Below, piece by piece: positions 2,904-34,867 of a stretch of DNA of 48,822 nucleotides. The notes beneath the pieces were generated by a model. That model was not told where the DNA came from. It saw only the letters and a list, made by a program, of their open reading frames with translations, and did no database searches. Within the stretch, counting starts at the first letter, position 1; each line of letters opens with the position of its first letter. The position numbers and the translations under genes are program-made. The DNA is from Tunavirus T1, in the sequence record MN153797.1; one strand, written 5' to 3'.

Positions 2904-3389
2904 ATGTTAAAATTAAAAGATATTCAGTTCCCTGTAGTATTTAACACTATTAGCTGCGGTAAAATAACCTGCCACAGCAAAGATCGCGCAACAGATTCAT
3001 CATTCAATGAGTGCCACCCGTCTATTGTTGGTAATCTTATTGAGCTTCATAACAATCACAATCCTGATAACATCCCATCTCTTCCATATTATGTTGAGGG
3101 AGTCGGGCCTGGTTGGAAGGTTGGTCGCTCCATCTTCCATGCAGCAAAGCCAGAAATCAAGCCAGCGCTACAATGCACTCAGATCGAGAACATGCCATTG
3201 AGCGCGACACTAAAAGGTGTCCAACTTGATAGCGAATCCTGGATCGAGATTACCGCCACGCCTAAAACTATTGAGGTACATGATGATGTGGTGATTCTCC
3301 TGTTGCATTACGGCAGCTTTAAGCACAAGACGGTATCAGGTGAAATCAGCATTAAGCGCGGAACTCTTGTCCGCTACGAGGTGAAATAA
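2904..3389 (+). CDS. hypothetical protein
   Basis: ORF track; RBS aggaaag. Confidence 0.5.
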   Translation: MLKLKDIQFPVVFNTISCGKITCHSKDRATDSSFNECHPSIVGNLIELHNNHNPDNIPSLPYYVEGVGPGWKVGRSIFHAAKPEIKPALQCTQIENMPLSATLKGVQLDSESWIEITATPKTIEVHDDVVILLLHYGSFKHKTVSGEISIKRGTLVRYEVK

Positions 3390-3538
3390 TGACTGCATGG
3401 GTCTTGATTATCTTGATGAGCAAAGGTCCGGATCACGTATACATGGAAAGTCAACAATCATGCAACAAGGCACGGGAAGTTATCGCAGAGAACAAGCCGT
3501 TCGGATATGAAGTAAAAACTATGTGCGTTAAACGATAG
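3389..3538 (+). CDS. small hypothetical protein (49 aa)
   Basis: ATG overlaps upstream stop (taATGa); stop TAG is first triplet of the next box; below ORF-track size cutoff. Confidence 0.3.
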   Translation: MTAWVLIILMSKGPDHVYMESQQSCNKAREVIAENKPFGYEVKTMCVKR

Positions 3539-11866: not shown

Positions 11867-12617
11867 TGGCGTTGCAACACAGTGGCGCTATCCTGAAATG
11901 AGCGAGCGCGCAATGTCGCGCTCCCTACAGGATGTTGCAGCCAAACTAACTGAAAAAATGCGTGACGAATTAAAGCCGATGAAATTTGACGCTACCGACG
12001 AAGAGATAGATCAGACAGAGAGGTCATTGCTTGATTACGTCGAATCACTCATCGCTCCGATTATTGGTTCTCTATCATCCGTTGCGCTCACGATCTATAA
12101 ATTCAACTCTAAGCAGTGGCTGCGCATCGCTCGCAATGCTGGAGGTAAGAAGAATCAAGCCGTGATGCTACTTGCCCTGATTGGTCCTACCGCTGCCGAA
12201 AGCTGGTACTCAGGACAATATAATCTGTGGCGATCGCAGGTTGCTACTTCTATCAGGAAATTTGCCGCCAACATGGTTACTGATTTCACTGATAAACTTC
12301 GTGCGGCATCCGGTCAGGGTAAAAGCAAGGATTTTGTTGTTGAACTTGCTAAGGAGCGATTTGGTATTTACCGGAACTGGGCCAAAAATAGAGCGTCGGG
12401 AATTGTCGGAACCTGGAACAGTAGACTGATGCGTCAGCGCATAAAAGACGCTGGTGTCTCTTACTATTTCTGGCGCGGGGTGATGGATTTACGCGAACGT
12501 GAAAAACATGTAAGATGGGAAGGTAAGCGCATAGCGGTAGATTCCGATCATGTATTCCCTGGTGAGGAATACAACTGCCGCTGTTGGGCTGTTCCAGACT
12601 TTTCTACAGGAGATTAA
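11856..12617 (+). CDS. minor head / head morphogenesis protein
   Basis: Position after portal; 253-aa ORF. Confidence 0.55.
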   Translation: MKINGVATQWRYPEMSERAMSRSLQDVAAKLTEKMRDELKPMKFDATDEEIDQTERSLLDYVESLIAPIIGSLSSVALTIYKFNSKQWLRIARNAGGKKNQAVMLLALIGPTAAESWYSGQYNLWRSQVATSIRKFAANMVTDFTDKLRAASGQGKSKDFVVELAKERFGIYRNWAKNRASGIVGTWNSRLMRQRIKDAGVSYYFWRGVMDLREREKHVRWEGKRIAVDSDHVFPGEEYNCRCWAVPDFSTGD

Positions 12618-12619
12618 AA

Positions 12620-13732
12620 ATGAAGGCAAAGCAAAGATTCGATTCAGTAAAAATCAAGGCGCACTTTGATGATAACGGTTTTTTAGTTGACCGCCCAATC
12701 GTGGCGCGAATCGGCGCTCAGGTTTACAAAACGCCGCACGGCGATCGAGTTGAGTTCCGTCCGGCGTCCGAAGTTTTCAAGCAAGACTCCTTGCAAAGTT
12801 TTGCGGGTAAGCCAATTACTGTCGGTCACGTAACGGTAACTCCGCAGAATGCTAAAGACGTTGTTGTCGGATCGTGTGCTGGCGCTGGTATTGCTTCAGG
12901 GGTTGGCGTTGAAGTTCCTTTGAGTATTTACAGCGACTACGCGATCAGCAAGGCTAAAGCAAAAGAAGCAGGTGAATTATCTGTTGGTTATACTTCGGTT
13001 GATATTGATAAGCCTGGTTGGGGTTCAAATGAGACTGGAGAATATATCTTCGAAGAGGATATGAAACAGGACGAAGCGCCGCCTGAAGGTTGGGTGAGAT
13101 TCGACGCGGTACAAACTAATATCAAGGTCAACCATATTGCCCTAGTTTTTAAAGGTCGTGCGGGAATTGCTAAATTAAATCTTGATGCCGAACAGGAGTT
13201 CCCGTATGATAATAACGTTCAATTAACTAACGAGGACAAGCAAATGAAAAAAATTAAGATCGACTCAGTTGATGTGGAAGTAACCGAAGACGTTGCGAAC
13301 CATATCGAAAAATTAACCGCGCAGATTGCCAACATTCAGGGGAAAGCTGATGGCTTCGAAGCTGAGCGCGATGCGCTGAAGGTTAAGGTTGACTCTCTGC
13401 CGGAACTTGTGAAGGCCGAGGTAGAGAAGCAAAAAGCCGATGCCGCCGCACGCGCAGAAGTTACCGCAGTAGCAGAAACCGCAGGCGTCAAACATGATGG
13501 TCTTGATATCAAAGACGTCAAGATTGCCGTAGTTAAAGCCATGCTTGATAAAGATGTTAGTGAAAAATCAGACGCATATATCGACGCTATGTTTGATGTT
13601 GCTAAAGATTCTGATATCATGGCTATTCAGCGTAAAGCAGTAAAAGGCGACTCTATCGAAGGCGGTAAGCCGGAAGAGAAAAACGACGCCGCGCCTGTTA
13701 CGCCAAATTCACGTTTAAGCAAAGTAATGTAA
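12620..13732 (+). CDS. putative scaffolding / prohead protease-like protein
   Basis: Internal ATG of ORF 12584..13732 with RBS caggag; coiled-coil, charged C-terminal half; sits between portal and capsid. Confidence 0.45.
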   Translation: MKAKQRFDSVKIKAHFDDNGFLVDRPIVARIGAQVYKTPHGDRVEFRPASEVFKQDSLQSFAGKPITVGHVTVTPQNAKDVVVGSCAGAGIASGVGVEVPLSIYSDYAISKAKAKEAGELSVGYTSVDIDKPGWGSNETGEYIFEEDMKQDEAPPEGWVRFDAVQTNIKVNHIALVFKGRAGIAKLNLDAEQEFPYDNNVQLTNEDKQMKKIKIDSVDVEVTEDVANHIEKLTAQIANIQGKADGFEAERDALKVKVDSLPELVKAEVEKQKADAAARAEVTAVAETAGVKHDGLDIKDVKIAVVKAMLDKDVSEKSDAYIDAMFDVAKDSDIMAIQRKAVKGDSIEGGKPEEKNDAAPVTPNSRLSKVM

Positions 13733-13743
13733 GGGGAAATATC

Positions 13744-14220
13744 ATGGCACAAATTAATGCATCTTATCAGCGAGATATGGCGATTGCGCTTCCGGGTATG
13801 GTTGCGGATACTTCAAAGTACAATATTGACGGCGCTTGTGTCGTTAATGAAGGTGATGTTCTTGTTGGCGCTGCCGTACAAGTTGTTCAAGCTCAGGCGG
13901 TTGATGGTCATAAGTTGGTTAAGGCTCTTACTACCGGAACCACTCCTTACGGCGTGGCAATCCGATCTCACTGGCAGACTGTTAACGCTCAAAATCAGAT
14001 GATTTACGAAGATGGCGGCGCTATCAACGTGATGACTTCAGGCCGAGTATGGATGCTTTCCAAATCCACCGAAGCGCCAACTTTCGGCTCTGCCGTTAAA
14101 CTTGATGTTGATGGTCAGGAAAAATCTGATGGCACGATCGAAACAACCTGGACCTACGCTGGCGGTTGGATTAAATACAAAGATATTCAGCTTGTTGAGG
14201 TTCAGTTGCATCAACTGTAA
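13744..14220 (+). CDS. putative head decoration protein (paralog A)
   Basis: Shares N-terminal motif (S/T)xYNIDGACV..G(A/S)AVQVV with the next ORF; sits just upstream of major capsid gene. Confidence 0.4.
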   Translation: MAQINASYQRDMAIALPGMVADTSKYNIDGACVVNEGDVLVGAAVQVVQAQAVDGHKLVKALTTGTTPYGVAIRSHWQTVNAQNQMIYEDGGAINVMTSGRVWMLSKSTEAPTFGSAVKLDVDGQEKSDGTIETTWTYAGGWIKYKDIQLVEVQLHQL

Positions 14221-14236
14221 TTAGCGTTTAATATGG

Positions 14237-14267
14237 GGACTATCCTTTTTTGGATAGTCCTTTTTTT
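14237..14267 (+). terminator. Rho-independent terminator
   Basis: Hairpin ggactatcc-tttttt-ggatagtcc then T7. Confidence 0.65.
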
Positions 14268-14281
14268 ATGGAGAAATCATT

Positions 14282-15049
14282 ATGGCTTACGAAAATTTAA
14301 TGTTGCGCCCGGCGTGTCCGGGAAATCTTTCTGATACTTCAACCTACAATATTGATGGCGCTTGCGTGGCTCAAGGTGACATTGAGTTCGGCTCAGCGGT
14401 TCAGGTTGTCGGCATCGTTGATGGTGTAAAAGTTGTTACGGCGCTTTCTGATGGTGGAACTCCTTACGGTATCGCTTTCCGTTCCCAATATGAACACCTG
14501 ATCGGTAAAATCCTCGACGGTGAAGTGTGCAACGTCGTTTCTCACGGTCGCGTGTGGGCGCTTACTTCTCTTGATGAGGCTCCCAGCTTGTTCTCAAAGT
14601 TGCAGTTTGGATCTGGTGGGGTTGTTACTGGTGGATCTGGTTACGCAGGATGGACCTTTGCTGGCGGCTTTGTTAAGCACGAAGATGGCTACATTATTGA
14701 GGTTCGGGTGAAACAAAATGCTTTCATCGTTCCACCGCCGCCGCCCCCTGTCGTTCTTGTTGAATCCGCTACAATCACCACTGACAAGGAAAGCCCTCAG
14801 CCAAACAACGTTACGATCCAGTGTGTAGCTAATGCTCTTCCGGCTAATGCAACTGATAAGACTGGCAAATGGTCAATCGACGCTACCAATATCGCCACTG
14901 TCAATCCGGACTCAGGTCTTGTAACTCCTGTTGGTGGAGAGGTAGTCGGTGATTTCAATATTACCTGGACGGCTAACGATGCCAGCAAGACGACGGCAAC
15001 CATTGCTTATCGCGTAGAAGCAGTGCCAACGCCAGAGGTTGATGTATAA
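14282..15049 (+). CDS. putative head decoration protein (paralog B) with polyproline linker and C-terminal Ig-like domain
   Basis: N-terminus paralogous to 13744..14220; PPPPPPVV linker; C-terminal region resembles bacterial Ig-like domains. Confidence 0.45.
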   Translation: MAYENLMLRPACPGNLSDTSTYNIDGACVAQGDIEFGSAVQVVGIVDGVKVVTALSDGGTPYGIAFRSQYEHLIGKILDGEVCNVVSHGRVWALTSLDEAPSLFSKLQFGSGGVVTGGSGYAGWTFAGGFVKHEDGYIIEVRVKQNAFIVPPPPPPVVLVESATITTDKESPQPNNVTIQCVANALPANATDKTGKWSIDATNIATVNPDSGLVTPVGGEVVGDFNITWTANDASKTTATIAYRVEAVPTPEVDV

Positions 15050-15060
15050 CATAAAAACAC

Positions 15061-15089
15061 TTTGACGCTTTAACAAAAAGTGCTATTAT
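15061..15089 (+). promoter_or_regulatory. Sigma70-like promoter (TTTGAC, 17 bp, TATTAT) with box taacaaaaagtgcta inside the spacer
   Basis: Read directly; box at 15071-15085. Confidence 0.45.
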
Positions 15090-15094
15090 TGAAG

Positions 15095-15119
15095 CCGTGA
15101 ACATAATCACGGTTTTTTA
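15095..15119 (+). terminator. Leader hairpin plus T-run between promoter and major capsid gene (possible attenuator)
   Basis: ccgtga-acataa-tcacgg then TTTTTT. Confidence 0.45.
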
Positions 15120-15139
15120 TTAACTATGGAGAAGTAATC

Positions 15140-16099
15140 ATGACTACTAAAAAATTTGATGAAGCAGATAAAAGCAATGTTGAAATGTATCTGATCCAGG
15201 CTGGCGTAAAACAGGATGCGGCCGCAACGATGGGTATCTGGACCGCTCAGGAACTACACCGCATCAAAAGCCAGTCCTATGAAGAAGACTACCCGGTCGG
15301 CTCAGCTTTACGCGTATTCCCGGTTACAACCGAGCTTTCTCCGACCGACAAGACGTTTGAGTATATGACCTTTGATAAGGTTGGTACGGCTCAGATTATC
15401 GCAGACTACACCGACGATCTTCCGCTGGTTGATGCCCTGGGTACTTCTGAATTTGGCAAGGTGTTCCGTCTTGGTAACGCGTACCTGATCTCAATCGACG
15501 AAATCAAAGCGGGTCAGGCAACTGGTCGCCCACTGTCAACCCGTAAGGCGAGTGCGTGCCAGTTGGCGCATGATCAGCTTGTTAACCGCCTGGTGTTCAA
15601 AGGTTCCGCGCCGCACAAGATTGTGTCCGTGTTCAACCATCCGAATATCACCAAAATTACCTCTGGTAAGTGGATTGATGTATCTACTATGAAGCCGGAA
15701 ACTGCGGAAGCTGAGCTAACTCAAGCGATCGAAACCATCGAGACGATTACTCGTGGTCAGCACCGCGCAACCAACATCCTGATCCCGCCTTCCATGCGTA
15801 AGGTTTTGGCGATTCGTATGCCTGAGACAACCATGTCTTACCTGGACTATTTTAAGTCTCAGAACTCCGGTATCGAAATCGACTCTATCGCAGAGCTTGA
15901 GGATATTGACGGCGCAGGCACCAAAGGCGTACTGGTGTACGAAAAGAATCCGATGAACATGTCCATCGAGATCCCGGAAGCATTTAACATGCTGCCAGCA
16001 CAACCGAAAGACTTGCACTTTAAAGTGCCTTGCACCTCTAAGTGTACTGGTCTTACAATTTATCGCCCGATGACTATTGTCTTAATCACTGGCGTGTAA
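15140..16099 (+). CDS. major capsid protein
   Basis: 319-aa ORF in canonical position with strong RBS ggagaag; followed by a strong terminator. Confidence 0.65.
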   Translation: MTTKKFDEADKSNVEMYLIQAGVKQDAAATMGIWTAQELHRIKSQSYEEDYPVGSALRVFPVTTELSPTDKTFEYMTFDKVGTAQIIADYTDDLPLVDALGTSEFGKVFRLGNAYLISIDEIKAGQATGRPLSTRKASACQLAHDQLVNRLVFKGSAPHKIVSVFNHPNITKITSGKWIDVSTMKPETAEAELTQAIETIETITRGQHRATNILIPPSMRKVLAIRMPETTMSYLDYFKSQNSGIEIDSIAELEDIDGAGTKGVLVYEKNPMNMSIEIPEAFNMLPAQPKDLHFKVPCTSKCTGLTIYRPMTIVLITGV

Positions 16100-16106
16100 T
16101 ATTATA

Positions 16107-16134
16107 GGGGCTAACTTAGTTAGTCCCTTTTTTT
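16107..16134 (+). terminator. Rho-independent terminator
   Basis: Hairpin ggggctaac-tta-gttagtccc then T7. Confidence 0.65.
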
Positions 16135-16149
16135 ATTGGAGAAATCAAA

Positions 16150-16437
16150 ATGGCTAAAGAAAAAACTGTTGTTATCGTAAACGTTGGTGTAGCTCTTCAG
16201 ATGTTCCGTCTTGAAGATGGTTCCTTTGCTAAAGTTCTTCCAGATGAAGAGGTCACGCTTCCGGCGTCCGTTCTTGATTTACCTGGTCTGCGTTGCTTAA
16301 TTGCTCGCGAAGAAATCGAAGTTAAAGACGACAGTGCAACCAACCGCAAAATCCGCGCTGAAATGGCAAAGATCACGAAGCCAGATCCGTGGGATAAAAT
16401 GAGCGTAAAAGAGCTTGAAGACGGCGGCGAATATTAA
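16150..16437 (+). CDS. hypothetical protein
   Basis: ORF track; RBS ggagaa. Confidence 0.45.
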   Translation: MAKEKTVVIVNVGVALQMFRLEDGSFAKVLPDEEVTLPASVLDLPGLRCLIAREEIEVKDDSATNRKIRAEMAKITKPDPWDKMSVKELEDGGEY

Positions 16438-16443
16438 TCATCA

Positions 16444-16469
16444 AGGCGCTCATGTAGCGCCTTTTTTTA
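16444..16469 (+). terminator. Rho-independent terminator
   Basis: Hairpin aggcgct-catgt-agcgcct then T7. Confidence 0.65.
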
Positions 16470-16481
16470 TGGTGGTAAATT

Positions 16482-16892
16482 ATGAATCAAGAAACTTTAA
16501 TTGCAGTTGTTGAGCAAATGCGAAAGCTGGTTCCGGCACTTCGTAAGGTTCCAGACGAAACGCTTTATGCGTGGGTAGAAATGGCTGAGCTTTTTGTATG
16601 CCAGAAGACCTTTAAAGACGCATACGTCAAAGCGCTCGCTCTTTATGCATTGCACCTTGCTTTCCTTGACGGGGCGCTAAAAGGTGAAGATGAGGATCTG
16701 GAATCGTACTCACGACGAGTTACGTCATTCTCCCTGAGCGGTGAATTTAGCCAGACTTTCGGAGAGGTTACAAAGAACCAGTCAGGAGACATGATGCTTT
16801 CGACGCCGTGGGGTAAGATGTTCGAACAGCTTAAAGCGCGACGCCGTGGTCGATTCGCATTAATGACAGGACTCCGTGGAGGATGCCACTAA
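16482..16892 (+). CDS. head-tail connector / head completion protein (positional)
   Basis: ORF track; position between capsid and tail genes. Confidence 0.4.
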   Translation: MNQETLIAVVEQMRKLVPALRKVPDETLYAWVEMAELFVCQKTFKDAYVKALALYALHLAFLDGALKGEDEDLESYSRRVTSFSLSGEFSQTFGEVTKNQSGDMMLSTPWGKMFEQLKARRRGRFALMTGLRGGCH

Positions 16893-25043: not shown

Positions 25044-28000
25044 ATGATTCAAAAAGTGATAAGCGGATCTAAAGGTGGGTCACAGAAGCCTCATAACCCA
25101 GTTGAGATGGAGGACAATCTAATCTCAATCAACAAAATCAAGATCCTGTTAGCTGTATCTGATGGTGAAATTGACGAAACATTCAGCCTGAAGCAGTTGA
25201 TGTTTAACTCAGTCCCGGTGCAAAACGAGGATGGCTCATTTAACTTCGAGGGAGTAAAGGCAGAGTTCAGACCTGGGACGCAGACTCAGGAATATATCAA
25301 GGGAATGGAAGATAGCTCTAGTGAGGTAACTGTAAATCGTGAGGTTACTACCGATAACCCATACACAATCTCAGTAACCAACAAAACGCTGTCGGCAATC
25401 CGTATCAAAATGTTCATGCCTCGCGGCGTACGAATTGAAAGTAACGGTGATAAAAATGGCGTAAGAGTTGAGTATGAGGTGCAACAAGCTGTTGATGGCG
25501 GCTCGTTTGAGACGGTGCTCACCGATGTAATCGAAGGCAAAACAATGTCAGGTTACGATCGGAGCAGACGTGTAAACCTACCTAACTTCAACAATCAGGT
25601 GATATTCAGAGTGGTTCGGAAAACTCCAGACTCTAACGACTCGAACGTTGTTGACGCGATTCAGGTAAAGAGCTATGCCGAGGTGATTGATGCCAAATTC
25701 CGTTATCCGCTGACTGGTCTTCTTTTTGTCGAGTTTGATTCGAAGATGTTCCCAAACCAGTTACCTACGATCTCAATTCGTAAGCGCTGGAAGATTGTAA
25801 ACGTTCCGTCAAACTATGATCCAGAATCACGAACTTATAACGGAAATTGGGATGGAACTTTTAAGAAGGCATGGACGAATAATCCGGCCTGGGTGCTTTA
25901 TGACCTGATGATTAATCAGCGTTATGGCTTGGATCAGAAAGAGCTTGGTATCGCTGTAGATAAATGGGCGCTCTACGAGGCTGCGCAATATTGCGATCAG
26001 ATGGTTCCTGATGGGAAGGGCGGGACGGAACCTCGATACCTTTGCGACGTGATAATCCAGTCTCAGACTGACGCTTACAAGGTTATCCGAGATATTTGCT
26101 CAATCTTTCGTGGTATGAGCTTTTGGAATGGTGAGAGCATTTCGGTAATCATCGACAGGCCGCGTGAACCTGCGTACATCTTCACTAACGACAACGTTGT
26201 TAATGGTGACTTCTCCTACACGTTCGCAAGCGAAAAGAGCATGTACACGACGTGTAATGTGATGTTTGATGATGAACAAAACATGTATCAGCAGGACGTT
26301 GAGCCAGTATTCGATCGTGAGGCTACTCTACGGTTTGGGAACAACGTTACGAGCATTACAGCGATCGGTTGCACACGTCGAAGCGAGGCCAACCGACGCG
26401 GGAGATGGATTCTGAAAACTAACCTCCGCAGCACTACGGTAAACTTCGCTACCGGGCTTGAGGGCATGATCCCGACAATCGGAGATGTTGTGGCAATAGC
26501 TGATAACTTCTGGTCAAGTAACTTGACAATGAACCTGTCAGGGCGTTTGCTCGAAGTGTCTGGAAGTCAGATTTTCTTGCCGTTCCGGGTGGATGCACGC
26601 GCTGGTGACTTTATTATCGTAAATAAGCCAGATGGCAAGCCTGTGAAGCGCACAATCTCAAGTGTTAGTGCGGATGGTAAGACTATAGAGGTTAACATTG
26701 GCTTTGGCTTTCCTGTGAAGCCTAACACGGTATTCGCTATCGACCGCACCGACATTGCGTTACAGCAGTACGTCGTGACAAAAATCGATAAGGGCGATGA
26801 TGATGAGGAATTTACCTACAAAATAACGGCGGTGGAGTACGATCCTAACAAGTATGATGAGATTGATTACGGAGTTAACATCGACGACCGACCGACGAGC
26901 ATCGTTGAACCAGATCAGATCCCTAGACCGAAAAATGTGCAAGTATCCTCAGAGTCGAGAATCGTCCAGGGGATGAGCGTAGAAACGATGATTGTTAGCT
27001 GGGATAAAGTTCCGTACGCTGTTTTCTATGACGTCCAGTGGCGAAAGGATAACGGCAACTGGCAAAATGTACCGCAGACAGCAAACAAAGAGGTATACGT
27101 TGAAGGTATTTACGCTGGCAACTATCAGGTTCGCGTTCGCTCAGTCGCTGGTTCGGGCACGACTTCAGGCTGGTCAAATATCGTCGCGGCAACGTTGACG
27201 GGTAAACAGGGTGAACCGGGCCGACCGATTAACCTCACAGCTACGGATGATGTTGTTTTTGGTATCCGTACAAAATGGGGGTTCTCTGATGGTTCTGGAG
27301 ATACAGCCTATACAGAGTTGCAACAGTCACCGGATGGAACAGTGGATAACGCAAGTTTGCTTTCTTTGATTCCGTATCCGCAGCATGAGTATTATCACTC
27401 ACCAATGCCTGGAGGGAATATTGTTTGGTATCGGGTAAGGATGGTTGACAGGATCGGTAACGTGTCTCAGTGGACTGATTTTGTCAGAGGTATGGCATCA
27501 ACAAACGTTGACGATATCATTGGGGAGATTTCTGTTGATATCGAAAACTCACCTGGTTACGAGTGGCTTGTTGATAACGCAACAGACAACGCGGCGCAGA
27601 ACTCAGCTAACGCAGAGGCAGCAATAGAAAACGCGCTCGCCAATGACAAAGACGCGATCTACATGAAGAAGGAGAACGGAAAACGAAAAGCTGAGTACAC
27701 GAAATCACTGAAACTTATTGCTGATGAGACGCAGGCACGAGTGACGGCGATCGAGCAATTGAAGGCAAGTTTTGGCGATCAGATTAGCGCTAGCAACAGC
27801 GAGCTGCGTGAGGTTATCGCAACCGAGACTGAAGCACTATCGCGTGAGATTGACCAGCTTAAGGCTCAGATTGGTGACGATATTCAGGCAAGTCTGACTG
27901 ATATTCGGGAGGTTATCGCAACCGAGACTGAAGCACTATCGCGTGAGATTGACCAGCTTAAGGCTCAGATTGGTGACGATATTCAGGCAAGTCTGACTGA

Positions 28001-28562
28001 TATTCGGGAGGCTATCGCGAACGAGACTGAGGCTAGAACGCAAGCTGACTTAACACTTAGCGCGCGGCTTGGAAATAACGAGGCGGCACTTGCTCAAAAA
28101 CTAGACTCGTGGAGTAACGCGGATTCTACTGGTGCAATGTACGGTGTCAAGTTGGGTCTGAAATACAACGGCCAGGAATACAGTGCAGGCATGGCTATGT
28201 CTCTAGTTGGTTCCGGAGCTGCGGTTAAGGCGCAGATTTTGTTTGAGGCGTCACGATTTGCCATCATGACTGGAATGAATGGTCAGACTCAGTACCCCTT
28301 CGTTGTTGAGAATGGTCAGGTTATTTTAAGTAGCGCGATTATCAAGAACGGATTCATCACCAACGCAATGATTGGAAACTTCATCCAGTCGAATAACTAT
28401 GTATTTAACCAGTCCGGATGGAGGCTTGACAAGGGTGGAACATTCGAAAATTGCGGAAGTGACGGTGAGGGTGCAATGAAGCAAACTAATACCACAATAT
28501 CTGTTAGGGATGCGAGTGGTCGCCTGAGGGTTCAGATTGGCAGGTTGACTGGCTCATGGTAA
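25044..28562 (+). CDS. central tail fiber / host specificity protein (lambda J-like)
   Basis: 1172-aa ORF after M-L-K-I block; contains in-frame 99-bp tandem repeat. Confidence 0.8.
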   Translation: MIQKVISGSKGGSQKPHNPVEMEDNLISINKIKILLAVSDGEIDETFSLKQLMFNSVPVQNEDGSFNFEGVKAEFRPGTQTQEYIKGMEDSSSEVTVNREVTTDNPYTISVTNKTLSAIRIKMFMPRGVRIESNGDKNGVRVEYEVQQAVDGGSFETVLTDVIEGKTMSGYDRSRRVNLPNFNNQVIFRVVRKTPDSNDSNVVDAIQVKSYAEVIDAKFRYPLTGLLFVEFDSKMFPNQLPTISIRKRWKIVNVPSNYDPESRTYNGNWDGTFKKAWTNNPAWVLYDLMINQRYGLDQKELGIAVDKWALYEAAQYCDQMVPDGKGGTEPRYLCDVIIQSQTDAYKVIRDICSIFRGMSFWNGESISVIIDRPREPAYIFTNDNVVNGDFSYTFASEKSMYTTCNVMFDDEQNMYQQDVEPVFDREATLRFGNNVTSITAIGCTRRSEANRRGRWILKTNLRSTTVNFATGLEGMIPTIGDVVAIADNFWSSNLTMNLSGRLLEVSGSQIFLPFRVDARAGDFIIVNKPDGKPVKRTISSVSADGKTIEVNIGFGFPVKPNTVFAIDRTDIALQQYVVTKIDKGDDDEEFTYKITAVEYDPNKYDEIDYGVNIDDRPTSIVEPDQIPRPKNVQVSSESRIVQGMSVETMIVSWDKVPYAVFYDVQWRKDNGNWQNVPQTANKEVYVEGIYAGNYQVRVRSVAGSGTTSGWSNIVAATLTGKQGEPGRPINLTATDDVVFGIRTKWGFSDGSGDTAYTELQQSPDGTVDNASLLSLIPYPQHEYYHSPMPGGNIVWYRVRMVDRIGNVSQWTDFVRGMASTNVDDIIGEISVDIENSPGYEWLVDNATDNAAQNSANAEAAIENALANDKDAIYMKKENGKRKAEYTKSLKLIADETQARVTAIEQLKASFGDQISASNSELREVIATETEALSREIDQLKAQIGDDIQASLTDIREVIATETEALSREIDQLKAQIGDDIQASLTDIREAIANETEARTQADLTLSARLGNNEAALAQKLDSWSNADSTGAMYGVKLGLKYNGQEYSAGMAMSLVGSGAAVKAQILFEASRFAIMTGMNGQTQYPFVVENGQVILSSAIIKNGFITNAMIGNFIQSNNYVFNQSGWRLDKGGTFENCGSDGEGAMKQTNTTISVRDASGRLRVQIGRLTGSW
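27811..28008 (+). repeat. Perfect 99-bp tandem duplication (2 copies plus a diverged partial third) inside the J-like gene
   Basis: Unit aggttatcgcaaccgagactgaagcactatcgcgtgagattgaccagcttaaggctcagattggtgacgatattcaggcaagtctgactgatattcggg repeats at 27811 and 27910; encodes the same 33-aa segment twice. Confidence 0.85.
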
Positions 28563-32695: not shown

Positions 32696-34312
32696 CTACG
32701 TATTTTTTAAGCTTTCAACAAACTCTCCAGATACCATTCTTTCATGATTTCTTTTGCACTCTTCAACCTTCTTGTTGTAAATCGAGTCATTAGGCATCTC
32801 AACTCGAACGCTAACAAAAACATCACTCGGAATGTCAATAGGATCTCCGTCGCTATACCCATCCTTATGATTTCTTGCGAATGAAGGCGCGTTATCATGA
32901 GTTCTATGATAAGTCTTGATAACCAAAGACCCATCAGGGTTAACATCATAATCTACCCACAATATAGGCTGTCCGTTAATGTCTTTTGGTATCTCTATGC
33001 CACCATTAACACCACCCCACGCTAGATCAGAATTTAGTGATAAACACCCCCTTATCAAATACTCGCCAGTAGAAATCCTCTCAACTGTACAACCTTCGCT
33101 CTCGTCGTTTGTTCTATGGCTCCCGTTGCCAAAAATATCAACGATGGGCGAGGCTCTTTTTATAAATCCGTTAGAGTCAACGGTTGTATTGCCTGTATTC
33201 CATATAACCTGGGTAGATTGCCATTGCCCCGCTCCTGTCTGTTTTCTGAGCCTCACATCCTTATAGTGTGGAGAGGTCATTGATGCGTCTTCAATAACAA
33301 AACCGAAAGCACTACCATCTCCTTGACCGTTTCTATGACGAACAGATATAGCTGTGACCCATCCAACAGAATTAACATTGTAACTTGCAAGGCTGCTAGG
33401 CTGAGATGATAAGGCGTTAACATAATCTACCCAGCTTGATTTCTCGTTAGATGCCGGACTTGATACAACGTTACCGGAAGAACTTGCCTGAAACGGTATC
33501 CACGGAGAAAACTTTGCATTATTGCCGTTTTTCATCCTTATGTAAAAAGTGCCGCGACCCGCTCTTGCGTATTCGTTTTGAGAATTTCCAGATTCTGGGT
33601 CAGTACCCAAATAAGTAAAAGGCGTAAATCTCTGAATGCAAGCGCTTGCACCGTTAGCTCCATTAGGAAGAACCTCAAGCATACCTGCCGTAGCCTCAGG
33701 ATAGCCCCTACTAGCGGTAGCTAAAGCACTTGATGATTGCATATATATTCCAGGGCCATCACCTTCACCAGTTATTGAATCAAGATGTTTTTCCCCTAAG
33801 TTAGTTCTATCAAGTTTGTAAACCTTTAGGCTTGTCCTTGCCTGCTCCTCGGTAGTTCCACCAGTGCCACCAAAATTAACCCCTAGAGCCTTGTTTTCAC
33901 TTCCATCATGAGTCATGGCGCCCCAGTCGCCGCTATCCTTGACGATCAGCTTAAATCCGGTCCTATCGTCATTTGAATAGATTTCCGTTAAATCTCCGCG
34001 AGGTTGATTTAATCTATTTACTGCTAGATTTTTCTTTGATTGCTCCTTGTCAGCAAGGCCAGAAAGATTTCCGTCCTTAGTTAAAAGATTGTCAGCATTA
34101 ACGCTATTTGCTGCGTCCTGAGCTTCCTGAGCACTTACCGCTGCCGCGTCTTTAGCGCTAACCGCCGCATCGCGTGCTGCCTGGGCATCGTTTTTTGCTG
34201 AGGTTGCAGTTTGCGCCGCAGTCTGAGCATCATTAACATAGCCAGATAGATCGCCTTTAGCGTCATTAATTTCTTGAACGATATTGTTCAGTGTCCATAT
34301 CAAGATCGGCAA
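32696..34312 (-). CDS. tail fiber protein, C-terminal fragment (no ATG, no RBS; TTG is the first in-frame start)
   Basis: 538-aa ORF; N-terminus repeats the C-terminus of 34412..34867; Ala/Gln-rich coiled region then Gly/Ser/Asn-rich distal domain. Confidence 0.6.
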   Translation of the reverse strand: MPILIWTLNNIVQEINDAKGDLSGYVNDAQTAAQTATSAKNDAQAARDAAVSAKDAAAVSAQEAQDAANSVNADNLLTKDGNLSGLADKEQSKKNLAVNRLNQPRGDLTEIYSNDDRTGFKLIVKDSGDWGAMTHDGSENKALGVNFGGTGGTTEEQARTSLKVYKLDRTNLGEKHLDSITGEGDGPGIYMQSSSALATASRGYPEATAGMLEVLPNGANGASACIQRFTPFTYLGTDPESGNSQNEYARAGRGTFYIRMKNGNNAKFSPWIPFQASSSGNVVSSPASNEKSSWVDYVNALSSQPSSLASYNVNSVGWVTAISVRHRNGQGDGSAFGFVIEDASMTSPHYKDVRLRKQTGAGQWQSTQVIWNTGNTTVDSNGFIKRASPIVDIFGNGSHRTNDESEGCTVERISTGEYLIRGCLSLNSDLAWGGVNGGIEIPKDINGQPILWVDYDVNPDGSLVIKTYHRTHDNAPSFARNHKDGYSDGDPIDIPSDVFVSVRVEMPNDSIYNKKVEECKRNHERMVSGEFVESLKNT

Positions 34313-34330
34313 TAATATCCATGCCGATGC
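34197..34330. repeat. Direct repeat copy A (134 bp) of tail fiber coding sequence
   Basis: Matches 34418-34555 except three small indels (agt/tgag, gtg/gttg, cca/ccaa). Confidence 0.8.
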
Positions 34331-34355
34331 AGATTAGTGATAGCCTTGTCGGTTG

Positions 34356-34402
34356 CTGAATAAATAAAAAAAATAGGGGCCCCCCCCCCCTTTTTTATTC
34401 AG
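34356..34402. other. Palindromic element ctgaataaa-taaaaaaaa-tagggg-C11-ttt-tttattcag between the two repeat copies
   Basis: Inverted arms 34356-34364 and 34394-34402; homopolymers A8, G4, C11, T6 read directly. Confidence 0.8.
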
Positions 34403-34411
34403 ATAGACACG

Positions 34412-34867
34412 TCACGTGCTGAGGTTGCTGAGTTGCGCCGCAGTCTGAGCATCATTAACATAGCCAGATAGATCGCCTTTAGCGTCATTAATTTCTTGAA
34501 CGATATTGTTCAGGTTGTCCATATCAAGATCGGCAATAATATCCAATGCCGATGCGATCTCAGTCTCTTTGCTCTGGTAGTACCGAAGCGTCTCAGCGAC
34601 GTTTTGCGCAAGACCGTTAACGGTCAATGAATCGTTAAGCAAGATCACATACTTACCGTCAGCGGCAGTCTGACCATCCGTAGAGATAGCCTTTAGCTCT
34701 GTGTCGCTCACAATGTCGCTGATTACCGCCAGTTTAATTGGTTGCTCCAGGAATACGATAGTTGCACCGACTCGAATCAGAGCAAGCTGATCTTTCCATT
34801 TTGTATCGGTTCCGTGAACCGTACCGTCTGCATCCATTGATGCAGTACCGCGTCTATATAAAGCCAT
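34412..34867 (-). CDS. tail fiber protein, N-terminal fragment (151 aa) ending just after repeat copy B
   Basis: ATG 34867 with RBS aaggag; C-terminal ..LNNIVQEINDAKGDLSGYVNDAQTAAQ duplicated at start of 32696..34312. Confidence 0.55.
   Translation of the reverse strand: MALYRRGTASMDADGTVHGTDTKWKDQLALIRVGATIVFLEQPIKLAVISDIVSDTELKAISTDGQTAADGKYVILLNDSLTVNGLAQNVAETLRYYQSKETEIASALDIIADLDMDNLNNIVQEINDAKGDLSGYVNDAQTAAQLSNLST
34418..34555. repeat. Direct repeat copy B (138 bp) of tail fiber coding sequence
   Basis: See copy A. Confidence 0.8.

Follow-up and report, generated by a model that had tools for sequence, protein, structure and literature searches.

Immediately upstream of the major capsid gene of Tunavirus T1 lie two related genes of unequal length, the second of which continues beyond the shared part into a run of prolines and an additional domain. 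Why should the head of this phage carry two versions of one protein, what sets their proportions, and what does the extra domain contribute? We examined these questions in sequence record MN153797.1, the full 48,822 nucleotides of which constitute the window analysed here. An earlier note on this DNA had described the genes as a paralogous pair separated by a strong terminator, and had suggested that their ratio could be set by transcription and that an Ig-like domain displayed by the capsid would point to adhesion to surfaces or mucus.

The identity of the two genes can be stated directly. Apart from one rearranged block (34278-34488), the window is colinear with the deposited T1 genome AY216660, from which it otherwise differs by 60 substitutions and a single-base indel. 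Comparison with deposited phage genomes by megablast gave 99.9% identity between positions 13500-15300 and three T1 records (AY216660, NC_005833 and MK213796), over the full length and at identical coordinates. The sole long ORFs in the region of the pair extend from 13744 to 14220 (+ strand, 158 aa) and from 14282 to 15049 (+ strand, 255 aa). They are T1 gp49 and gp48, respectively, which are deposited as AAP49951.1 and AAP49952.1 with the same coordinates in AY216660. Relative to all three deposited T1 records, the two non-synonymous changes in the pair are T143I in gp49 (nt 14171) and S74I in gp48 (nt 14502). The designations gp49, gp48 and gp47 used here are the original ORF numbers, as employed in the structural study of the T1 head (PMC11945409). 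In GenBank AY216660 the two genes are labelled 'capsid decoration protein' (CPTT1_029) and 'IgG-domain-containing decoration protein' (CPTT1_030). The status of gp49 and gp48 as a cement pair is already known, both from this annotation and from the structure, copy number and capsid position published in 2025. The features of the locus are as follows, with the basis of each assignment in brackets.

13744-14220, + strand: gp49 (CPTT1_029), main cement/decoration protein, 158 aa, 17.0 kDa (ORF, Pfam, PHROG, PDB, GenBank)
14235-14269, + strand: predicted rho-independent terminator, stem GGGGACTATCC / GGATAGTCCTT, loop TTTTTT (pattern scan, fold, AY216660 annotation at 14237-14269)
14282-14731, + strand: gp48 (CPTT1_030) residues 1-150, cement (beta-tulip) domain (BLASTP, Pfam, PDB)
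14732-14749, + strand: gp48 hexaproline linker, residues 151-156, encoded by CCACCGCCGCCGCCCCCT (regular expression, alignment)
14750-15046, + strand: entire C-terminal module of gp48, about residues 157-255
14807-15001, + strand: predicted Big_2 Ig-like domain of gp48, residues 176-240 (Pfam, PHROG, PDB)
15062-15089, + strand: sigma-70-like promoter site TTGACG-16-TGcTATTAT, candidate restart point for the capsid gene (scan; predicted promoter in AY216660)
15095-15121, + strand: second hairpin with T6 tract between gp48 and the capsid gene, core CCGTGA/TCACGG (fold; GenBank terminator)
15140-16099, + strand: major capsid protein gp47, HK97 fold, forming the lattice that both cement proteins bind (Pfam, GenBank, PMC11945409)

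The pair was said to stand upstream of the capsid gene, and this is where it lies: the next ORF, at 15140-16099, matches Pfam Major_capside with E 4.6e-63. The head module reads portal, MuF-like protein, protease, gp49, gp48 and capsid gene, and the same order is found in six relatives.

When aligned one against the other by BLASTP, gp49 and gp48 share 61 identities in 143 positions (43%, E 1e-32). The alignable core extends over residues 15-157 of gp49 and 11-145 of gp48, the N-terminal arm of gp48 being shorter by four residues. A regular expression search recovered each motif that had been quoted for the pair, in the forms SKYNIDGACV/STYNIDGACV, GAAVQVV/GSAVQVV and TPYGVAIRS/TPYGIAFRS (gp49/gp48), together with GRVW in both. 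The paralogy proposed from these motifs is thus upheld. The shared core is equally real, but its description in the earlier note as N-terminal has to be amended, as it spans the whole of the short protein. Both proteins score above the cut-off (27) for the Pfam family Phage_cement (PF22758), gp49 with 106.4 bits (E 1.9e-30) and gp48 with 61.8 bits (E 9.9e-17), and both belong to phrog_1989 (E 7.6e-66 for gp49). In searches of PDB sequences gp49 matches a chain in 9kmg, 9kmh and 9kzj (E 2.1e-102). For gp48 the match is to 9kzj_H across 255 residues with one substitution (E 3.2e-170), and gp48 is about 94% identical to the 'Decoration protein gp29' of 9kmh (9KMG and 9KMH are from a T1-like phage). 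A single-sequence AlphaFold2 model of gp48 was unusable (mean pLDDT 35.8, pTM 0.18).

PDB entry 9KZJ is the T1 head, determined by cryo-EM from purified virions, and its modelled chains include gp49 as well as gp48 (Chen et al., Viruses 2025, PMC11945409). The head is a T=7 lattice of 415 gp47 subunits and carries 80 homotrimers of gp49 and 60 heterotrimers, each composed of one gp48 and two gp49, so that the copies per head stand at 360 gp49 : 60 gp48 : 415 gp47 (PMC11945409). Both proteins adopt the beta-tulip fold of TW1 gp56 and lambda gpD; a long N-terminal arm of gp49 extends to the inner capsid surface, whereas gp48 is confined to the outside (PMC11945409). Residues 2-153 of gp48 were modelled in the cryo-EM map, and residues 154-255 correspond to a weak, outward-protruding density that the authors modelled with AlphaFold3 (PMC11945409). 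The reading of both gene products as capsid decoration proteins is therefore correct, both being present in purified virions, and the checks that had been proposed for it (decoration fold, virion presence, stoichiometry and cryo-EM) have been carried out in the published work and all support it. The predicted Ig-like domain does lie at the capsid surface, as had been supposed, since the C-terminal module of gp48 is reported to project outward (PMC11945409). The best overall explanation of the locus, and one that we regard as very probably right, is that gp49 and gp48 are paralogous cement proteins with the beta-tulip fold, which fasten a T=7 capsid of the HK97 fold at its three-fold and quasi-three-fold junctions.

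The place that gp48 occupies in the lattice bears on why a second paralogue exists. The geometry of T=7 gives every hexon a single penton as neighbour, and exactly two trimer sites are common to both; there are 60 of these peripentonal trimer sites, each formed where two hexon subunits meet one penton subunit. A second class of quasi-three-fold site, likewise numbering 60, would supply three sites per hexon, not two. According to the legend of Figure 2A in the structural study, a hexon and a penton are displayed with six trimers, of which four are homotrimeric and two heterotrimeric (PMC11945409). Two heterotrimers per hexon, taken together with T=7 geometry, place the heterotrimers most likely in a ring around each penton, and the 60 sites are therefore most likely the penton-adjacent ones, a placement that we infer geometrically from the figure legend. 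If this placement is right, the 6:1 particle ratio is fixed by lattice geometry and not by gene dosage, and the gp49:gp48 ratio of the virion would be set by which lattice sites accept gp48. The single gp48 of each heterotrimer may be the penton-facing subunit, in which case five Ig domains would stand around each vertex.

We offer, as a tentative proposal that falls short of being probable, that the second paralogue is primarily a vertex adapter: its gene product would face the penton in the 60 peripentonal trimers, its supply would be throttled by transcriptional read-through, expression of the capsid gene would be boosted again downstream, and the Ig-like domain would be a later addition. 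The comparative data considered below bear on how a capsid lattice picks a variant subunit for particular sites, and also on whether the displayed domain has a natural ligand.

Homologues of the gp48 cement part were found by tblastn in 816 phage records, nearly all of them from T1-like phages of enterobacteria, and 178 of these records cover at least 80% of gp48. The Ig-bearing pair is syntenic in Citrobacter phage IME-JL8 (Sertoctavirus), Klebsiella phage K50 and Enterobacter phage AS5 (Henuseptimavirus). Phage Tls (NC_009540), in which the paralogues are named HtjA and HdeC, is likewise syntenic, with protease, cement gene, terminator, second paralogue, repeat and hairpin, and capsid gene in this order. 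The Webervirus KP1801 has a single cement gene. As an observation that favours the vertex-adapter proposal, the second paralogue is kept in Drexlerviridae with or without its Ig-like domain.

A strong terminator had been noted between the two ORFs, and the predicted hairpin answers to that description. The stem at 14235-14262 comprises 11 pairs (nine Watson-Crick and two G-U) around a 6-nt loop, a T7 tract occupies 14261-14267, and the centroid energy of -17.4 kcal/mol corresponds to z = -3.5 relative to shuffled sequences. The ribosome-binding site of gp48, GGAG (14270-14273), follows directly on the 3' side. A hairpin and U-tract succeeded by GGAG are present after the first cement gene in all five pair-bearing phages examined (T1, JL8, IsaakIselin, K50 and Tls), where this conserved position is occupied by five different stem sequences; conservation of position with divergence of the stems supports a genuine terminator. 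A hairpin and U-tract, here too with a divergent stem, also follow the lone cement gene of KP1801 at the corresponding position. This last case shows that the predicted terminator is older than the paralogue pair, and that it would be neither specific to the pair nor evolved to balance the two paralogues.

Only 19 nt lie between the end of the terminator stem (14262) and the start codon of gp48 (14282), and a scan of 12500-16600 detected no promoter-like site on the + strand between 13620 and 14482. With neither the room for a promoter nor a promoter-like site before the gene, translation of gp48 should depend entirely on transcripts that have passed the gp49 terminator. gp48 would then be made solely by way of read-through of a predicted leaky terminator, and its message could not exceed that of gp49. 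Supply in the cluster is plausibly graded by gene order, and transcription of the capsid gene may begin afresh at a promoter-like element that is conserved. In the literature searched, neither a transcriptome of T1 nor a mapping of its terminators was found, nor were data on transcript or protein abundance for this phage. For a protein that adapts the vertices, obligatory read-through of a leaky terminator found throughout the family would be the throttle on its supply.

The same arrangement invites the stronger claim that the terminator is the primary determinant of the 6:1 ratio of gp49 to gp48, partial termination leaving about one-sixth as much gp48 message and the capsid taking whatever is supplied. 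A canonical hairpin with a U7 tract right before the gp48 ribosome-binding site is what such a mechanism would use, space for a gp48 promoter is absent, the hairpin position is kept in each of the pair-bearing phages, and the two ribosome-binding sites are alike in quality (AAGGGG for gp49, GGAG for gp48). However, the cryo-EM structure contains ordered, site-specific heterotrimers of fixed composition, one gp48 with two gp49, at each of 60 positions and no statistical mixture, so that geometry and not supply would fix the ratio in the virion. In addition, the same terminator stands behind the only cement gene of KP1801, and the capsid gene, which lies beyond two terminators, gives the most abundant product, so attenuation alone is insufficient for the cluster. 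We consider control of the ratio chiefly by termination to be unlikely. Transcription as the setter of the ratio is plausible in the restricted sense of a supply gradient, but cannot be the whole explanation.

We turn next to the capsid gene and its place in the vertex-adapter proposal. The best promoter-like site within 12500-16600 is that at 15062-15089, with 10 of 12 matches and a TG, and a promoter-like element before the capsid gene is conserved across genera. This site is overlapped by a copy (15069-15086) of an 18-nt repeat with the conserved core TTTAACAAAAAGTGCTAT, which occurs 13 times in the genome, against 0.09 copies expected; copies lie in either orientation, and most of them lack a -35 hexamer. 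The same repeat has been described in Tls and noted for T1, and it has been proposed to serve as a stoperator, an enhancer site or a UP-like element; the same report relays an older view of the T1 late region as a series of modules with terminators on their flanks (PMC11447400). A plain sigma-70 promoter before the capsid gene is uncertain and there may be no promoter here, the 'spacer' of the site being a copy of the 13-fold, two-orientation repeat. The second hairpin (15095-15121) adjoins the -10 hexamer directly and has undergone compensatory stem changes in relatives (GCCG/CGGC versus GGCTG/CAGCC). The predicted start, at about 15096, would fall inside the 5' arm of the hairpin at 15095-15112, and transcripts initiated there might, speculatively, escape the hairpin. 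Were gp48 a vertex adapter, the capsid gene could be boosted anew at this conserved element, which overlaps an 18-nt repeat distributed genome-wide in T1-like phages.

The remaining part of gp48 is the C-terminal module. A polyproline linker, PPPPPPVV, and a C-terminal domain resembling bacterial Ig-like domains had been reported for the second ORF, and both were found. The six prolines are residues 151-156 (nt 14732-14749) and are followed by VV, as located by regular expression. Residues 176-240 match Pfam Big_2 (PF02368) with 30.1 bits, above the cut-off of 22.8 (E 4.6e-7). The C-terminal 99 residues agree with this assignment in matching PHROG families 215, 1280, 341 and 3575, which are Ig-domain families of phage head and tail proteins (E 1e-7 to 8e-12), and the C-terminal part also matches the Ig domain of a tail tube protein, PDB 8hqz_p (E 0.0022). 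By these profile matches, the C-terminal module of gp48 is a proline linker joined to a predicted Big_2 Ig-like domain. The linker sequence at this position differs in JL8, K50 and AS5. The authors of the structure suggested that the gp48 protrusion may help adsorption to the host (PMC11945409). The domain is best regarded as a flexible accessory module, probably for weak adhesion to carbohydrates or surfaces, that would be dispensable for assembly.

Two relatives are informative about the history of this module. In Tls, HdeC is a protein of 146 aa that, unlike gp48, has neither linker nor Ig-like domain; it matches T1 gp48 with E 8e-14 and its own first paralogue HtjA with E 4e-19. In phage IsaakIselin the long gene has an in-frame TAG precisely between the cement and Ig parts, where AS5, its only close relative and 96% identical, has GAA. 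Programmed read-through of this TAG to give a minor long form was considered and rejected as a general explanation, given that AS5 has GAA and one continuous ORF. The comparison shows what appears to be an isolate-specific nonsense mutation, and with it that the Ig-like domain is probably dispensable in culture. From the Ig-less HdeC of Tls and the amber codon of IsaakIselin it follows that the pair predates the Ig domain. These findings indicate that the second paralogue probably plays a structural part independent of the Ig-like domain, which would be a later accessory. Within the vertex-adapter proposal, the Ig module would have been added late and could be exchanged or dispensed with.

This history counts against an alternative in which the Ig-like domain, as a mucus or surface adhesin of the kind envisaged in the 'bacteriophage adherence to mucus' model for T4 Hoc, is the main reason for the second paralogue. 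A Big_2 domain carried on a flexible proline linker at 60 capsid positions would suit such a function, gut and sewage are the sources of T1 and its relatives, and many phages bear comparable Ig modules on their head and tail proteins. Nevertheless, the second paralogue of Tls is without any Ig domain and hence has a role apart from the module, IsaakIselin propagates despite an amber codon ahead of the domain, and the authors of the structure favour transient adsorption to the host cell instead (PMC11945409). Adhesion as the main reason for the second gene thus seems doubtful to us. A displayed Ig domain is in any event a convenient site for phage display and engineering.

The second paralogues have a shorter N-terminus in common, and identity among them is 29-42%, as against 51-66% among first paralogues. 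Their faster evolution and the nonsense codon in one isolate could be read as signs of functional redundancy between the short protein and the long one, the second gene being a recent duplicate drifting to loss. The pair is, however, syntenic across two subfamilies (Tunavirinae and Tempevirinae), every second paralogue, that of IsaakIselin included, retains an intact cement domain, and gp48 has a defined structural position (PMC11945409), which leaves this explanation very improbable. The Ig-less paralogue of Tls, the amber codon of IsaakIselin and the conserved terminator are what comparison adds to a structure that was already known.

Among known systems, the display of an Ig-like domain by gp48 would recall T4 Hoc in function. 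In T4 Hoc, as would be the case for the T1 gp48 module, an Ig-like domain is exposed outside the capsid at fixed positions and is not essential. Hoc is a separate monomer at hexamer centres and has several Ig domains, whereas T1 has one predicted Big_2 domain that forms part of a cement paralogue at trimer sites. T5 and crAss001 have been cited as analogues in which an Ig-like domain is displayed on the capsid (PMC11945409), and many phage tail tube and head proteins carry Big_2-like domains as gp48 does.

The cement domain itself can be compared with two groups of proteins. Like the T1 pair, lambda gpD and TW1 gp56 have the beta-tulip fold and form trimers at capsid three-fold positions (PMC11945409; GenBank HHpred note, 5WK1). 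PDB sequence searches with a single sequence (E up to 10) and with a profile (E up to 1) returned no chain of gpD or TW1 gp56, and the resemblance of the T1 cement proteins to lambda gpD is at the level of fold only. The N-terminal arm of lambda gpD is unlike that of gp49, which extends to the inner capsid surface (PMC11945409), and the sole decoration gene of lambda comes without an Ig module, whereas T1 has two genes, one of them with an Ig-like domain. At the level of sequence the pair falls, well above curated cut-offs, in the Phage_cement family PF22758, which is represented by E217 gp24 and Pam3 gp6. The minor capsid protein gp53 of XM1 (PF23982) is related to the T1 pair, and a profile of Drexlerviridae proteins reaches the 'Cement' chain G of PDB 8HDT with E 8.5e-7. 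The E217, Pam3, XM1 and 8HDT phages are myoviruses with one cement gene, whereas T1 and some of its relatives have a paralogous 2:1 heterotrimer with an Ig-like extension. T1-like phages are a clear-cut natural example of a cement complex in which paralogues form a 2:1 heterotrimer.

A hairpin with a T-tract follows each of four consecutive genes, namely those for the paralogous cement proteins gp49 and gp48, the major capsid protein gp47, and gp46, and each lies directly 5′ of the next ribosome-binding site. The four were located by a pattern scan and folding:

14235-14267, hairpin and T-tract after gp49
15095-15118, hairpin and T-tract after gp48
16106-16135, hairpin and T-tract after gp47
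16443-16468, hairpin and T-tract after gp46

As the downstream genes still need to be expressed, these predicted terminators must either leak, be overridden or have promoters beyond them.

The window also carries 13 copies of an 18-nt repeat, TTTAACAAAAAGTGCTAT, when up to three mismatches are allowed, vs 0.09 expected. Copies occur on both strands and are mostly intergenic:

15069-15086, copy of the 18-nt repeat
103, 1450, 2269, 8362, 18833, 35964, 36430, 38939, 41942, 46127, 47086 and 48720, 12 further copies

This element matches the direct repeat that PMC11447400 describes for Tls and T1.

Relative to the reference T1 genome (AY216660), 48 of the 60 substitutions read A or T in the window against G or C in AY216660, and just nine run in the opposite direction. 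Two of the 60 fall in the cement protein pair (gp49 T143I at 14171 and gp48 S74I at 14502), both of which create an isoleucine. In the whole-window alignment, colinearity is broken between 34278-34488 and AY216660 34277-34502. This block includes homopolymer runs (AAAAAAAATAGGGGCCCCCCCCCCCTTTTTT) and duplicated pieces of its own flanks, 26-39 nt in length, and it interrupts T1 orf26 (CPTT1_053, minus strand, 728 aa), leaving two ORFs of 538 and 151 aa. The block has the appearance of either an artefact of assembly or a rearrangement. Within the coding sequence of the J-like tail fibre gene there is a tandem repeat, as indicated by self-alignment of 27807-27931 with 27906-28030 (125 bp, 96.8% identity), a shift of about 100 bp.

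Among relatives of T1, phage IsaakIselin (MZ501077) has an amber codon at about 2987-2989 in its long cement gene. Phage AS5, which is 96% identical to IsaakIselin, carries GAA at this place within a single 239-aa ORF, which rules out a conserved read-through site; the amber codon is a mutation specific to the IsaakIselin isolate. In phage Tls (NC_009540), hdeC (3006-3446, 146 aa) is a second cement protein paralogue that has no Ig domain, and Gp34 (HtjA), the first paralogue, is the only one that the 2024 re-annotation of Tls discusses as a decoration protein.
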